Shown piece by piece: positions 12,852 to 17,752 of a stretch of DNA of 64,000 nucleotides. The notes below the pieces were generated by a model, which was not told where the DNA came from, did no database searches, and was given only the letters and a program-made list of their open reading frames with translations. Each line of letters begins with the position of its first letter. Position 1 is the stretch's first letter. Both the position numbers and the translations under genes were made by a program. The DNA is from a bacterium (lineage in GTDB: Bacteria; Vulcanimicrobiota; JABDET01): the NCBI GenBank assembly GCA_021800275.1, contig JAJYZB010000013.1, positions 516 to 64,515 of the forward strand, read 5' to 3'.

Positions 12852-13727
12852 ATGAAGATTGGCGCATTTGATTCTGGAGTTGGTGGTTTTACAGTTCTCA
12901 AGCCGCTTTTAAAACAAATGCCGAATCTATCGGTTGTTTATCTGGCTGACACAGCTCATGTCCCTTACAGCGGAAAAACACCGGAGGAATTGGAGATTAT
13001 TATTCGGAAGATTTTAAAGTTTTTTTTAGAAAAAAAGGTAGAGGCTGTTATTTTTGCCTGCAACACTTCATCAGCCCTTGTTCTGCCAAAAGTTCGCCCG
13101 TACTCTTTTGTCCCTTTTTATGGGGTTGTGGGTCCAGGGATTAAATCTGCTTTAAAAGCCACGCAAGGAAAGGGGATCGGAGCTGCAGCCAATGAAGTTA
13201 CCGCAAAAAGCGGGATTTTTAAAAAAATGATTCATGAAAAAGATCCCGCTATTCCTGTTTTTGAGCAGAGCTGTCCCGAACTTGTTTCTTTGGTGGAAAA
13301 AGGGGATCTTTCTTCTTCAAGAACAGTTTCTGCTGTAAGAGAATACATGAAGCCTATTCGAGGGAAGATTGATGCTTTGATTTTAGGGTGCACTCATTTT
13401 CCCTTCTTGAAGAAACAGTTTGAAGATTCTCTGCCTGACTGCGCAGTCATTGATCCAGCCAATTCTTTGGCAGAAGAGTTCGCTGAAGATTTTAAAAATA
13501 AAAAAGTTTATCATGGAATTGACTCTCGTCAAAAGTTGAATAAAGGGAATATTGTTTTTAATGAAGCCGTAAAAAATCATGAACTTTTTGTGACAAAACA
13601 ATCTCCTCATATAGAGGAATGGGCTGAAAAAGTCCTGGGTTGGAAGGTGAAGGCAGAACTGCTGGATCTTAAATTTATTCGCCCCTGGACTCCTGAGGAG
13701 GTCGTTTCTTGTGAAACCCCGAGTTGA
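12852..13727 (+). CDS. murI: Glutamate racemase
   Basis: [25 protein letters not shown] (both catalytic Cys present). Confidence 0.95.
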
Positions 13728-14433
13728 TGGAAGACTTCCTGATCAGGTCAGATCTGTTCGAATAACAGGAAACTATTTGAAACATCCTGAAGGTTCTTTT
13801 CTTATTGAAATGGGGGATACTAAAGTCATTTGCGCTGCCAGTGTCGAAGAAAAGGTTCCTCAGTGGATGAAAAGTCAAAATGTTCCAGGGGGATGGATTA
13901 CAGCAGAATATGGCATGCTTCCTGGTTCAACTCATACCAGAACACCTCGAGAATCAAACAGGACAAGCGGAAGAACTATGGAGATTCAACGTTTGATTGG
14001 GCGTTCGATTCGGTCAGTCGTGGATCTTTCACTACTTGGCGAGAGAACAATCTGGCTGGACTGTGACGTCATCCAGGCAGATGGCGGAACCCGGACAGCC
14101 GCGATTACAGGAGCTTTTGCGGCTTTGAGTCAAGCATTGAATAAACTCGCTGCCAAAGGACTTGTTTCTTCTTCTCCTATTAAAGATTCTGTTGCAGCAA
14201 TCAGTGTTGGAATGGTAAAAGGGGATATTCTTTTGGATTTAAATTATCAGGAAGATTCAAAAGCAGATGTGGATTTAAATTTAGTGATGACAGGTTCCGG
14301 GCAGTTTGTAGAAATTCAGGCGACAGGGGAGAGAAAAATTTTTTCGCATCAGGATTTGAAGCGGTTCCTTGATTTAGGGGAAAAAGGAATCAGAGAACTG
14401 ATTGAAATACAGAAAAAAGCGCTAACTGGCTGA
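13711..14433 (+). CDS. rph: Ribonuclease PH
   Basis: [50 protein letters not shown]. Confidence 0.97.
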
Positions 14434-14491
14434 GTTCACATTTTTTTAACAAAGTGTTAACTTGCTTGAAATGAAATCCAGGAAATTTCTA

Positions 14492-14520
14492 TGGACAGAT
14501 TCAGATTTTAGTGATACAAT
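14492..14520 (+). promoter_or_regulatory. Sigma70-type promoter of small protein A
   Basis: TGGACA (14492-97), 17 nt, TACAAT (14515-20) with extended -10 TG. RBS AAGGAGG before ATG 14552. Confidence 0.7.
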
Positions 14521-14551
14521 AAAAGTAATCTTTCAAAAGGAGGGATGCAGA

Positions 14552-14743
14552 ATGGCAAGCGCAGTCGGCGGAGGTGGAGGACCATCACCTGTAAAGGGAT
14601 TAGGAAATATTTATAATAGCCAGGGATCGCAGAATATTCAAAATGAGGCACAAACTGCAAATACAGTCGTGGATTCTTATCAGCAAGTGGCTCAGCAGGA
14701 CAGTCAGGGAAGTGGAAGTGGAAGTCAGCCTCAAGGTGGATAA
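14552..14743 (+). CDS. Small Gly/Ser/Gln-rich protein A (63 aa), paralog of 15090-15362
   Basis: Strong RBS, own promoter and terminator; 43-aa core shared with protein B. Confidence 0.85.
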   Translation: MASAVGGGGGPSPVKGLGNIYNSQGSQNIQNEAQTANTVVDSYQQVAQQDSQGSGSGSQPQGG

Positions 14744-14767
14744 TTTATTTGCGTGATCTTGATCAGT

Positions 14768-14830
14768 AAAAATCCTGTTTATTCTGTTTATAGCGATTTG
14801 TGTTAAACGGAATAAGCAGGAATTTTTTTT
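14768..14830 (+). terminator. Intrinsic (probably bidirectional) terminator
   Basis: 18-bp stem TCCTGTTTATTCTGTTTA / TAAACGGAATAAGCAGGA (2 G-U pairs), flanked by an A-run and a T8 run. Confidence 0.8.
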
Positions 14831-15023
14831 GTCAGCAGATTTGCTGCGGCTCCACTCTTCTTTAAATTCTTTGAATTTTCAATCAACTGCCGGTGCATAG
14901 GTTTCTCGCTGCGCGGTTTCTATACAGCTCCATTTTTTCGTAAATTCGTTGAACTTTCAATTAATTGGGTTAAATATTTACATTTTATTAACAGAAAGTT
15001 AATGCTTTTGAAACAAATGCTCA

Positions 15024-15052
15024 TAGACCTTTCTCTAGTTTGATGGTATAAT
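15024..15052 (+). promoter_or_regulatory. Sigma70-type promoter of small protein B
   Basis: TAGACC (15024-29), 17 nt, TATAAT (15047-52) with extended -10 TG. RBS GAGGAGG before ATG 15090. Confidence 0.7.
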
Positions 15053-15089
15053 AATAGCATCAAAATTGTTTTTTTAGAGGAGGTCCAAT

Positions 15090-15362
15090 ATGGGAGCCAT
15101 AGCAGGGATAGCTGTTTCAGCAATTGGTGGACTTTTGGGTGGCAGCAGAGGCGGCGGGGGAGCCAGCGCAGGTGGAGCTTCAGGACCGTCTCCAGTTACT
15201 GGATTAGGAAATATCTATAATAATGAAGGGACTCAGTCTGTTCAAAATGAGGCACAAACAGCGAATACGGTTGTGGATTCTTATCAGCAGATAGCTCAAG
15301 AGGACAGCCAATCTTCAGGTGGAGGGCGGTCTAACTCAGGCGCAGGGGTCCAGACAGGCTGA
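15090..15362 (+). CDS. Small Gly/Ser/Gln-rich protein B (90 aa) with N-terminal Gly-zipper-like hydrophobic segment
   Basis: Strong RBS; core GPSPVTGLGNIYN...QNEAQTANTVVDSYQQ shared with protein A. Confidence 0.85.
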   Translation: MGAIAGIAVSAIGGLLGGSRGGGGASAGGASGPSPVTGLGNIYNNEGTQSVQNEAQTANTVVDSYQQIAQEDSQSSGGGRSNSGAGVQTG

Positions 15363-15369
15363 TCTGGTT

Positions 15370-16287
15370 TTATGTGATTCCAGATAATAGAGCTTCCAGA
15401 TCCTTCTGATAGAGCAGGTATTTGTGGCTGCAGAAGGGGCAGGCAGCTTCTACTTTTCCCTGTTTTATCAGAATGTCTTGAATTTCTTTTTTTCCTAATG
15501 CCATTAAGATCTCTTTCAGCTTTTCTTTAGAGCAGCGGCATTTGAAATGCACCCTCTGCTTTCCTAAAATTTTGAATTCGAGTCCTCCTAAAGCTCTTTC
15601 AACTAAGCCTTCAGGTGTTTCCCCTTCCTGGATTAAATGACTGACATCTGATAGTTCTGCGGCATTTTTTTCAAGTTTTGGGATCAAAGACTTTTCAGCC
15701 CCTGGAAGCAGCTGCAGCAGAATACCACCTGCAGCAATGACTCCATCCCATCCTACTAAAACTCCCAGGGAAACAATTGCGGGGATCTGTTCAGAGGTGT
15801 AAAAGTAATAAACCAGATCTTTAGCAATTTCTCCAGAAATAATCGGAGTGCATCCAGTATAAGGTTTTTCCATGTCCAGATCATAAGTTACACAGAGGGA
15901 TCCCTGATTTCCAATAATGCCAGAAACATCTAATTTTTCCCAAGAATTTAAAGGAACATGGACATGAGGGTTTTTAGCATATCCTCTGACTTCTCCTTTA
16001 GCATTAGCATCAGCAATGATTCCCCCAACGGGTCCATCCCCAAAAATCCGCAGAGTAAGCGTTTCTTCTCCTTTTAGACAGGCGCCCATGAGAGCGGCTG
16101 CAGTGAGTATGCGCCCTACGGCTGCCGTAACTGTCGGGTAGATTTTGTGCCGTTCTCGGCATTCTTCGACCATACGGGTTGTTCGCGCAGCAAGAACCCT
16201 CACGTTTCCAGAGGAGTCTGTGGCTCTGGTTAGATAGTCAAAAGGGGGAATCAACTCACTGCTTTTAAGGCTTCTTCCTGTTCCCAT
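15370..16287 (-). CDS. hslO: Hsp33 redox-regulated chaperone
   Basis: GDGPVGGIIAD, GEVRGY, SEQIP, AGGILLQLLPGA; C-terminal Zn site CRC...CPFC. Confidence 0.93.
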   Translation of the reverse strand: MGTGRSLKSSELIPPFDYLTRATDSSGNVRVLAARTTRMVEECRERHKIYPTVTAAVGRILTAAALMGACLKGEETLTLRIFGDGPVGGIIADANAKGEVRGYAKNPHVHVPLNSWEKLDVSGIIGNQGSLCVTYDLDMEKPYTGCTPIISGEIAKDLVYYFYTSEQIPAIVSLGVLVGWDGVIAAGGILLQLLPGAEKSLIPKLEKNAAELSDVSHLIQEGETPEGLVERALGGLEFKILGKQRVHFKCRCSKEKLKEILMALGKKEIQDILIKQGKVEAACPFCSHKYLLYQKDLEALLSGIT

Positions 16288-17344: not shown

Positions 17345-17752
17345 CTACTTAACCAAAGAATTTTTTTTTGCTGTTTTAGCTGCAGTTTCAGATTTTGCCG
17401 CAGATTCTTTTTGGGCAGGCGTTTCCTTTTTAGCCGCAGTTTCCTTTTTGGGAGGAGCTTCTTTTTTAACCGCGCTTTCCTTTTTAGGAGAAGACCCTTT
17501 ATCAGACCCTGTGTTTTTTACTGGGCTCTGGCTAGCCGTAGGAGTTTCTTCTTTTTTTCTTCTGTATTTAGCCGTAAATTTCTCGACTCTTCCTTCAGCA
17601 TCCACAATTTTCTGCTGTCCCGTAAAAAGAGGATGGCATTTTGAACAGATTTCTACTTTTAAGACTTTTTTCGTGGAATAAGAAGTAAAACTACTGCCGC
17701 AGGCGCATGTAACCTGCGCCTCAACGAATTCTGGATGAATTTTTAGCTTCAT
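17345..17752 (-). CDS. rpmE: 50S ribosomal protein L31 (Zn-binding type) with long Lys/Ala/Ser-rich C-terminal tail
   Basis: [24 protein letters not shown], then a ~70-aa low-complexity tail. Confidence 0.93.

Follow-up and report, generated by a model that had tools for sequence, protein, structure and literature searches.

The window analysed here, a stretch of 64,000 nucleotides from the genome (G000) of an uncultured lineage known from mine drainage and sediment, carries two short genes, A and B, which each encode a Gly/Gln-rich microprotein (Table 1). Both open reading frames are present, and 35 of the 43 residues in their shared core are identical, which bears out the paralogy proposed in the first-pass annotation. 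As that annotation also stated, Cys, Trp and Phe are absent from both proteins; in A, Gln and Asn together make up 25% of the residues and Gly 21%. Direct reading of the sequences agrees, furthermore, that neither protein has a Sec-type signal: the N-terminus of A is a polar, Gly-rich tail, and B has no basic n-region. What had been missed is that the first 18 residues of B form a hydrophobic small-xxx-small (glycine-zipper) segment. This zipper occurs only in B and is found neither in A nor in the orthologue from the sister species of the same genus (G001), and both of these genes also lack a 66-nt extension present in B. Beyond the missing zipper, A has no hydrophobic stretch.

Table 1. Features of the A/B locus, in window coordinates.
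Feature	Position	Strand	Description
Putative operator of A	14435..14462	+	TTCACA-N5-TTAACA-N5-TTAACT, 11-bp period; 16/18 positions
Promoter of A	14492..14520	+	TGGACA, 17-bp spacer, TG-n-TACAAT; 10/12 matches
Shine-Dalgarno of A	14539..14543	+	GGAGG, 8 nt before ATG; read directly
Gene A	14552..14743	+	63 aa; Gly-rich N-tail, core, Gly/Ser/Gln C-tail with QGG end
Conserved core of A	14579..14707	+	residues 10-52
Intrinsic terminator of A	14760..14834	+	long hairpin plus T-run
41-nt direct repeat, two copies	14849..14889, 14927..14967	+	78% alike; each with TTGAA-N2-TTCAA
Putative operator of B	14977..15004	+	TTTACA-N5-TTAACA-N5-TTAATG; 15/18 positions
Promoter of B	15024..15052	+	TAGACC, 17-bp spacer, TG-n-TATAAT; 10/12 matches
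Shine-Dalgarno of B	15079..15083	+	GGAGG, 6 nt before ATG; read directly
Gene B	15090..15362	+	90 aa; N-terminal extension, core, Gly/Ser C-tail
N-terminal extension of B	15090..15182	+	residues 1-31; hydrophobic glycine-zipper at residues 2-18
Core of B	15183..15311	+	residues 32-74

Over the 43 core codons, A and B differ by 18.0 synonymous and 10.0 non-synonymous changes under the Nei-Gojobori method (dN 0.106, dS 1.46, ratio 0.07), and the core codons of A and its G001 orthologue give a dN/dS of 0.05, compared with 0.11 for the neighbouring rph gene. Ratios of 0.05-0.07, and not near 1, indicate purifying selection on the protein and exclude chance, in line with the selection already suspected from the sequence. 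As such, A and B are clearly genuine protein-coding genes under purifying selection. Contigs from four DNA runs are identical to the window and thus revealed no population variation; among 8 listed runs, no RNA run was found.

The pair has no assignable family, which had been the earlier impression as well. Specifically, Pfam and NCBIfam models return zero families at E <= 10 for either protein, PHROGs gives no match, the best hit of a PDB profile search is a designed TPR protein at E 6.2, and in the ESM Atlas B reaches a best feature score of 0.83, under the 0.9 level, with no usable match for A; a confident match to a characterised family was found in none of these resources. One match was obtained among 1.84 billion representatives, B itself was the only member among 93 candidates from a 5.8-billion protein index, and JGI metagenome contigs contained 0 relatives among 235 pattern matches. 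Within the phylum, the family occurs in 2 of 401 genomes, both of one genus, and weak matches elsewhere (G004, G005, G023, G024, G033 and G039; E 0.0035-0.68) proved to be unrelated low-complexity frames. The G001 orthologue of A lies in the same synteny, murI-rph-[A]-hslO-prfA, and B is not present in that species. A is the syntenic ancestral copy, and B is an extra copy in the present species that has gained a hydrophobic glycine-zipper N-terminus; its absence from the sister species implies that B is dispensable for the genus.

Expression signals accompany each gene, largely as first described. Extended -10 promoter-like sites with 17-bp spacing and a TG before the -10 element precede both genes, in a region where a promoter scan found 6 sites against 2.4 +/- 1.8 in shuffles, and the Shine-Dalgarno sequence is strong in each case. 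The proposed terminator of A is supported by a hairpin of -31.8 kcal/mol (z = -6.13) that 0 of 200 shuffles equalled; after B, no convincing terminator was found (z = +1.4).

The functional unit begins further upstream than the first-pass annotation had placed it, at the operator that starts at position 14435. This element (G000:C17:14950-14977 in genome coordinates; repeat family D2) consists of three TTAACA-like repeats, is conserved upstream of the G001 orthologue and has a second D2 copy, 73% identical, upstream of B. The operator ends 29 bp before the -35 element in A and 19 bp before it in B, which brings the operator of B one helical turn nearer to its promoter; by eye, the last repeat likewise stands 29-30 bp from the -35 in A_G001 and in three promoters of Fam2, a second small protein family discussed below. 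Scans of G000 retrieved 12 matches at 16 or more of 18 positions, against 2 in the reversed genome, and 36 against 7 at 15 or more, and in G001 18 sites with at most 2 mismatches were found against 3 in the control. The operator marks about 20 intergenic loci in G000. Of 26 operator loci, 7 were called intragenic, one of them the operator of B itself, through a spurious overlapping open reading frame. Operators are kept in both species upstream of A, Fam2a, the Gly-zipper gene C8:71522, C8_280, C10_286, C29_271, C32_425 and fliK2, yet synonymous sites between G000 and G001 are saturated. G008 belongs to a different family within this phylum; its genome has about 199 copies of the element, at about 100 loci, compared with 23 in the control, and this abundance suggests that a global regulator may bind there.

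The layout of the element points to a type of binding protein. According to PMC3367932, SARP operators are typically heptamer repeats in 11-bp units, and SARP/OmpR-type operators more generally comprise two to three direct repeats of this unit length that overlap the -35 element or lie upstream of it; the A and B sites, with three 11-bp direct repeats on one helix face, resemble them. The TTAACA-N5-TTAAC of the A/B operator can also be read as TTAA-N7-TTAAC, the form given for the full CtrA site in PMC3692519. Unlike SARP-, CtrA- and OmpR-type operators, the repeats here are AT-rich, the centre is often palindromic (TTAACA-N3-TGTTAA), sites occur in both orientations with respect to the gene, and the binder is only a candidate. 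Nine Trans_reg_C proteins are encoded in G000; four SARP-type receiver proteins, among them the one at C8:105353-107623, and five OmpR-type regulators are present, and one 756-aa SARP-type protein is divergent from the target C8_211, with an operator between them. Most likely, an OmpR/SARP-type winged-helix protein, whose identity is here put forward as a candidate, would serve as activator: it would bind the three TTAACA repeats 11 bp apart and, once bound, would turn on the extended -10 sigma-70-type promoter lying 29 bp (A) or 19 bp (B) downstream. At fliK2 the operator is close to the start codon, at a distance of about 5-65 bp, which fits promoter overlap and not class-I activation.

A and B are microproteins confined to one genus and belong to a lineage-specific regulon, and the other genes that carry the operator place these proteins in context. 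In both species the operator adjoins a fliK-flhB_C-flgF-flgG-flgJ_N-fliA operon, whose products carry FliK-like, FlhB_C, FlgF, FlgG, Rod-binding and FliA/WhiG domains. An SLT gene inside the fliG..flhA cluster is a further target, and an SLT-fliK-flgE-like locus matches the operator at 15 of 18 positions; a gene beside a G004 operator was rejected as an SLT homologue (BLASTP E = 11). Flagellar genes are not the sole targets of the operator: it flanks many non-flagellar loci and was not found at the flagellin genes of G001, one of which has a sigma-28-like promoter instead. One operator is flanked on one side by the gene for an M50-HlyD protein of 877 aa, which has GNAT and T2SSF/GspF-like neighbours. 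This module is tied to A and B by co-regulation only. Other targets encode a GH76 glycosidase, a Phage_lysozyme2 (phage-tail-lysozyme-like) protein and an HExxH protein, all of which should act outside the cytoplasm.

These three belong to a larger group of some 15-20 orphan targets, mostly signal-less, with a high content of Gly, Gln, Asn, Ser and Thr, and nearly all with Gly-rich N-termini. Of the 24 genes flanking 26 site loci, 17 exceed the genome's 90th percentile for G+Q+N+S+T (Mann-Whitney p = 4e-9), and of the 15 genes with at least 4 Gly within the first 12 residues, 8 have an upstream operator score of at least 14, a score reached by 68 of all 2584 genes (Fisher p = 8e-10). Both p-values are overstated because the tests were designed post hoc on crude ORF calls with paralogues included. 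Among the small proteins of the regulon, Fam2 is a second Gly/Gln-rich family with a glycine-zipper that shares the operator. Its distribution is as narrow as that of A and B, with 2 proteins found, but it shows no detectable homology to them (hhalign probability 0.84%) and gives an AF2 model with a mean pLDDT of 47.6, too poor for a structure search. The operator-bearing gene C8:71522 matches Gly-zipper_Omp at 25.4 bits, against a cut-off of 25.

These zippers raise the question of whether A and B might be the two components of a membrane-active, bacteriocin-like or aggregating glycine-zipper peptide system, as in CdzC/CdzD of Caulobacter or class IIb bacteriocins. In PMC5380434, a glycine-zipper of small hydrophobic residues is the stressed feature of CdzC/D; the zipper of B is built in the same small-xxx-small manner, and Fam2 and C8:71522, with GxxxG-type zippers under the same operator, extend the parallel. 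CdzC and CdzD are also small and very highly expressed, as the strong expression signals predict for A and B, and aggregation or membrane insertion would be a plausible role for either pair. However, the conserved ancestral copy is precisely the one without zipper or hydrophobic stretch, and G001 carries A alone. The core is polar and helical, not hydrophobic, no immunity-like or ABC/HlyD type I exporter gene adjoins the pair, and the search for PCAT exporters found no Peptidase_C39 in the 98%-complete genome. On balance, a bacteriocin-like pair is improbable.

The first-pass annotation had offered type III substrates as one inference and recommended a look for export genes. That search recovered a flagellar set in G000, with one full FHIPEP (FlhA) gene inside the flagellar cluster, a second FlhA match, to a soluble FlhA_C-FliG_N fusion, and a single secretin; an injectisome (SctV, SctC, SctN and others) was not found. 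Flagellin_N and Flagellin_C had no match in G000. G001 and G002 encode five flagellins each, which makes an assembly gap the likelier cause of their absence in G000 and speaks against a flagellin-less export machine. T6SS/eCIS and T4SS were likewise set aside, as sheath and gp25 and, respectively, VirB4 were not found in the genome. A type-III-like substrate gains circumstantial support, and no more than that, from the operator common to the flagellar operon and from the signal-less co-targets, and the more specific needle or HrpA-pilin identity is not supported. A and B do resemble T3SS needle proteins (MxiH/PrgI, T3SS_needle_F) and HrpA in size, in the missing signal peptide and in polar helical character, but they have no Pfam match at E <= 10, and AF2 predicts for A, at a low-confidence mean pLDDT of 55.7, one helix spanning residues 23-53 and not the helical hairpin of needle proteins. 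For polymerising needle, pilus or appendage subunits, or a Q/N-rich functional amyloid, one could still cite the high predicted expression, the Gln/Asn- and Gly-rich composition of A without Cys, Trp or Phe, a helix whose heptad pattern might allow packing and a regulon linked to a type III export apparatus. Against these stand the missing needle and pilin matches, the missing injectisome and a family confined to one genus when the export apparatus is widespread. With ordinary flagellins in the sister species, the undescribed appendage once suggested is not supported either, and polymer or amyloid subunits are quite improbable.

What is shared with flagellar genes, the M50-HlyD-GspF module and the signal-less proteins is the operator, and this makes export of A and B by a non-Sec route the most likely reading: at a probability of roughly 35%, they would be exported independently of Sec or be located at the surface, each with a single amphipathic helix. 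The core of A shows a 3-4 heptad pattern through I29, A33, A36, V40, Y43 and A47, seen by eye, and the conserved core could form this helix and pair with itself or a partner, with the Gly tails remaining flexible. The proteins might leave the cell through the flagellar type III apparatus or through the co-regulated M50-HlyD-GspF module and function on the surface of the cell or in the matrix around it; the glycine-zipper of B may fix the protein in a membrane or cause it to aggregate. Flagellar type III systems can secrete non-flagellar proteins, as do those of Campylobacter with proteins of the Cia/FlaC/FspA type. A and B are likewise signal-less, polar and Cys-free, with a disordered N-terminus and an operator common to flagellar genes; they differ in having no sequence relation to these proteins, in an export that is so far a prediction, and in an operator that lies at many non-flagellar loci and not at flagellins.

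The same co-regulation with the fliA operon is also compatible with a life inside the cell. A and B could be abundant disordered regulators or adaptors of the same developmental or motility programme, for example a small factor whose single helix binds a regulator or chaperone in the manner of FlgM-type anti-sigma factors, or a protective hydrophilin, and their size, disorder, single conserved helix and acidic, polar composition would suit such proteins. The neighbourhood of the pair is, furthermore, one of housekeeping genes (rph, hslO, prfA and rpmE), with export machinery not encoded nearby. A cytoplasmic role is harder to reconcile with co-targets expected to be extracellular, such as the GH76 and lysozyme-like enzymes, and with the hydrophobic zipper at the N-terminus of B, which a soluble regulator would hardly carry; nor was FlgM or any other Pfam or NCBIfam match found at E <= 10. 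This alternative is somewhat less likely than export.

The C-termini bring up one more comparison. Pup is a disordered protein of about 64 aa in which a helix lies between a Gly-rich N-terminus and a Gly-Gly at the C-terminus, and A is similarly organised; A, its orthologue and two Fam2 proteins all end in QGG, which could mark A as a Pup- or UBact-like conjugatable tag. However, the GGQ/GGE end of Pup and UBact is present neither in A nor in B, B ends in QTG and the third Fam2 type also lacks the GG end, no Pup_ligase (PafA/Dop) was found in the genome and no Pup Pfam match was obtained, and proteasome genes are not adjacent to A and B, all of which makes a conjugatable tag extremely improbable.

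Returning to non-Sec export, the preferred reading can be extended to the whole regulon. The Gly-rich N-termini of A, B and about a dozen operator-linked signal-less orphans, the GH76, lysozyme-like and HExxH proteins included, might constitute a new type of export or processing signal. The set would then be the secretome of an unrecognised pathway, activated by a SARP-type receiver and served by an RRE-M50-HlyD-GNAT-GspF-like module and/or the flagellar type III gate, with A as its smallest and most abundant cargo or matrix component. This broader proposal is speculative and rather unlikely to hold in full. The Gly-rich, partly hydrophobic N-termini of many regulon proteins could serve as leaders and in that respect recall those of RiPPs. 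RiPP cores, by comparison, are far smaller and less polar than A and B, which also have neither a Cys/Ser/Thr-rich core nor adjacent modification enzymes.

By themselves, A and B amount to yet another family of orphan microproteins, and their value lies in where they lead. What is new is a compact, conserved operator that ties together flagellar basal-body and fliA genes, an M50-HlyD leader-protease and export-adaptor module and low-complexity, signal-less proteins with Gly-rich N-termini. If the proteins of the regulon are exported, they define the cargo of a non-classical secretion route and supply a signal that can be tested for it; the widespread RRE-M50-HlyD family would also gain a candidate function. 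Without export, the regulon still presents a case of a SARP-type receiver regulator outside actinomycete antibiotic clusters. A smaller element of the locus is the 41-nt direct repeat between the two genes, which among 4 genome matches with at most 2 substitutions is confined to the A/B locus.

The two Gly/Gln-rich paralogs A and B are a real pair of orphan microprotein genes. They are best placed in a newly recognized group of Gly-rich proteins without Sec-type signals, which is defined by a shared operator and has links to genes for flagellar and M50-HlyD export. Their cores (A residues 10-52, B residues 32-74) are identical at 35 of 43 positions, and over the 43 codons 18.0 differences are synonymous and 10.0 non-synonymous (dN 0.106, dS 1.46, ratio 0.07); the ratio is 0.05 for the A core against its orthologue in a sister species of the same genus (G001) and, for comparison, 0.11 for rph next door. 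The argument for protein-level selection that the first-pass annotation drew from synonymous third positions is correct, and A and B encode proteins under strong constraint. The expression signals it described hold up as well: both promoter-like sites have 17-bp spacers and TG-extended -10 boxes, a GGAGG Shine-Dalgarno sequence lies 8 nt (A) or 6 nt (B) upstream of ATG, and A has its own terminator, a very stable hairpin with a T-run (-31.8 kcal/mol, z -6.1). For B, no convincing terminator was found (z +1.4). Cys, Trp and Phe are absent from both proteins, as had been stated; overlooked was a hydrophobic small-xxx-small (glycine-zipper) segment at B residues 1-18, which A lacks. DNA contigs from four sequencing runs are identical to the window, and no RNA dataset is listed as containing it.

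Locations of the genes, operators and associated features (C, contigs of this genome; L, extracted loci)
Feature	Location	Strand	Remarks
rph	window 13711-14433		upstream of A
Operator of A	window 14435-14462		three TTAACA-like hexamers, 11-bp period; ends 29 bp before -35
Gene A	window 14552-14743	+	63-aa ORF
41-nt direct repeat	window 14849-14889 and 14927-14967		78% alike, 78 bp apart
Operator of B	window 14977-15004		three TTAACA-like hexamers, 11-bp period; ends 19 bp before -35
Gene B	window 15090-15362	+	90-aa ORF
hslO	window 15370-16287		downstream of B, convergent
Ribosomal protein L31	window 17345-17752	-
Fam2 locus, this genome	C28:363573-364411 (L003 1348-2198)	-
Fam2 locus, G001	L011 981-2381
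32-aa ORF and M50-HlyD operon	C10:38770-42746 (L084 271-4247)		ORF just downstream of operator
Low-complexity operator-linked proteins	C30:92613-93257; C29:85381-86193; C32:88653-89927
SARP-type receiver genes	C8:105353-107623; C12:24126-26396; C28:397011-399158; C30:139249-141165		weak Trans_reg_C
FlhA/FliG_N-like fusion	C22:2684-4915 (L035)	-	744 aa

A count of paralogs and neighbors, proposed earlier as a check, gives exactly two copies in this genome (2.46 Mb, 33 contigs, 98% complete) and one in G001. The latter, of 64 aa, keeps the order murI-rph-[gene]-hslO-prfA and abuts hslO with no space for a B copy, so A is the ancestral syntenic gene and B an extra copy. The promoter and operator were carried over with B, whose 5' end has been lengthened by 66 nt. 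Across 1.84 billion protein representatives the family profile has one match, a 64-aa protein near-identical to the G001 gene, and a search of a word-indexed set of 5.8 billion proteins recovered just B itself. One locus turned up among GTDB species genomes and none among JGI metagenome contigs; 2 of 401 genomes sampled phylum-wide match, both from this genus, and no match was found in G002 (another genus of the family, 67% complete). No usable match came from Pfam, NCBIfam, PHROGs, PDB sequences or the ESM Atlas, in line with the earlier view that no family can be assigned. The neighbors are housekeeping genes (upstream a GerM-like protein, an amidase, murI and rph; downstream hslO, prfA, rpmE and an RND pump), and the function is therefore to be sought via regulation. 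Ribosomal protein L31, encoded nearby, ends in a Lys-, Ala- and Glu-rich tail of about 70 aa.

Alignment of the DNA upstream of A, B and the G001 gene reveals conservation extending well past the promoter, into the triple-hexamer operator, whose distances to the -35 boxes of A and B differ by one helical turn. The same triple repeat precedes the genes of a second, unrelated Gly/Gln-rich small-protein family (Fam2) in both species, with spacer lengths at these promoters read by eye. Scored over 18 positions, sites with at least 16 matches number 12 in this genome and 2 in its reversed sequence, and those with at least 15 number 36 and 7; G001 has 18 sites with up to two mismatches, against 3 with the pattern read backwards. 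Sites occur in either orientation, often centered on the palindrome TTAACA-N3-TGTTAA. Despite saturated synonymous sites, the operator is kept between the two species at the orthologues of A, Fam2a, the glycine-zipper gene C8:71522, C8_280, C10_286, C29_271, C32_425 and fliK2, a fliK-like gene heading a flagellar operon. The element predates the A/B family: triple TTAACA sites also number 14 in G002 (control 1) and, in other families of the phylum, 7 in G004 (control 0), about 199 in G008 (control 23) and 0 in G005 and G012 (controls 0). The G008 elements are often perfect GTTAACA-N4 arrays, and the regulon appears massively expanded in that lineage. Additionally, the A-B spacer holds the 41-nt direct repeat, each copy enclosing a TTGAA-N2-TTCAA palindrome; it is confined to this spacer (two of the four genome matches with 2 substitutions allowed are these copies) and may be a second, B-specific regulator's site.

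The 36 matches in this genome collapse into 26 loci, of which crude gene calls (longest-ORF calls outside the window) place 19 between genes. Seventeen of 24 flanking genes exceed the genome's 90th percentile for Gly+Gln+Asn+Ser+Thr, against an expectation of about 2.4 (Mann-Whitney p = 4e-9). Operator scores of at least 14 occur at 8 of the 15 genes whose products carry four or more Gly within residues 1-12, and at 68 of 2584 genes overall (Fisher p = 8e-10); both tests were framed after the pattern was seen and include paralogs, so they indicate strong association rather than exact probabilities. The seven site-less genes comprise the second gene of the Fam2 operon and six ordinary proteins, at least three with N-termini that we read as Rossmann-type. 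The majority of targets fall in no Pfam or NCBIfam family. Those with domains are FliK-like, FlhB_C, FlgF, FlgG, Rod-binding and FliA/WhiG proteins in one operon, an SLT transglycosylase whose gene comes first in SLT-fliK-flgE-like within the fliG..flhA cluster, a PilZ protein adjoining a pilin-like gene, a GH76 glycosidase and a Phage_lysozyme2 protein (each Gly-rich at the N-terminus and lacking a Sec signal), and an HExxH protein with C-terminal glycine-zippers. Three further operator-linked proteins are strikingly low in complexity: one of 215 aa with about nine 11-residue SGLNTAGNAxS repeats, one of 271 aa with Lys/Glu/Gly repeats and a poly-Met C-terminus, and one of 425 aa rich in Gly and Met. 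Fam2 itself comprises orphan Gly/Gln-rich helical proteins of 101-123 aa in tandem (two copies here, three in G001), some with an N-terminal glycine-zipper and several ending in QGG, beside GNAT, TonB_C and AsnB-like genes; homology to A/B is not detectable (hhalign probability 0.84%).

Several operator-linked proteins have domains directed at cell walls or polysaccharides yet no Sec signal, and their N-termini are Gly-rich like those of A and B. The most economical reading is thus that all of them use one route of non-Sec export or processing. Two candidate routes lie beside operator sites. The first would be the flagellar type III apparatus: a 16/18 site lies beside its fliK-flhB_C-flgFG-fliA operon, and a weaker 15/18 site precedes SLT in its gate cluster fliG..flhA; A and B presumably resemble Campylobacter flagellum-secreted proteins. 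The second would be an M50-HlyD-GspF module, whose operon lies across the operator from fliK2 and encodes a GT9-like protein, an 877-aa M50-HlyD protein, GNAT and a GspF-like protein. This operon is preceded by a 32-aa ORF with a strong Shine-Dalgarno sequence and a Cys-Cys pair, possibly the substrate peptide that the module lacks. T6SS/eCIS, T4SS and C39-type exporters were not found in this genome.

The structural models of A and Fam2 are both of low confidence. From a three-sequence alignment, AlphaFold2 predicts one helix in A (residues 23-53, mean pLDDT 55.7) between disordered Gly-rich tails; A as a whole is 21% Gly and 25% Gln+Asn. Directly inspected, the hydrophobic residues I29, A33, A36, V40, Y43 and A47 are spaced 4-3-4-3-4, which would give one amphipathic coiled-coil-like face of about 2.7 heptads, preceded by the invariant GPSxVxGLGNIYN. 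In the explanation that we favor, with a probability of about 0.35, A and B would be exported or surface-associated, the helix would pair with itself or a partner, and B would be a membrane-anchoring or aggregating variant. The main rival, that they are cytoplasmic disordered regulators or adaptors of the same program, is somewhat less probable. A bacteriocin-like role is unlikely, as the ancestral A has no zipper and exporter and immunity context are absent. Slightly less likely still is the needle, HrpA-pilin or amyloid subunit first envisaged, for which family, fold and injectisome support are all missing. What we take to be a resemblance of A to Pup suggests a Pup-like tag, but the genome has no ligase and this is very improbable. 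The Gly-rich N-termini might act as an export signal.

The operator also points to candidate regulators. Its three repeats in 11-bp units match the classical operator form of SARP regulators (PMC3367932), and TTAACA-N5-TTAAC, if taken as TTAA-N7-TTAAC, equally fits the full CtrA site (PMC3692519). The genome encodes nine Trans_reg_C winged-helix proteins, of which five are OmpR-type and four are large receiver proteins of SARP type; these four are candidate TTAACA-binding activators. The operator separates the SARP-type gene on C8 from the target C8_211, which is transcribed divergently from it, and an OmpR-type regulator and its kinase adjoin the pilin/PilZ site.

No flagellin match was found in this genome, though full basal-body, export-gate and fliA genes are present. 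A filament-less export machine was considered and dropped: G001 and G002 carry five flagellin genes each, so their absence here probably reflects multi-copy genes lost in an assembly gap. The operator is absent from the G001 flagellin promoters, one of which is sigma-28-like. Elsewhere in the genome, a soluble protein fuses an FlhA cytoplasmic domain (FHIPEP 455-656) to a FliG_N-like domain, and its gene adjoins ShlB/POTRA two-partner-secretion genes.
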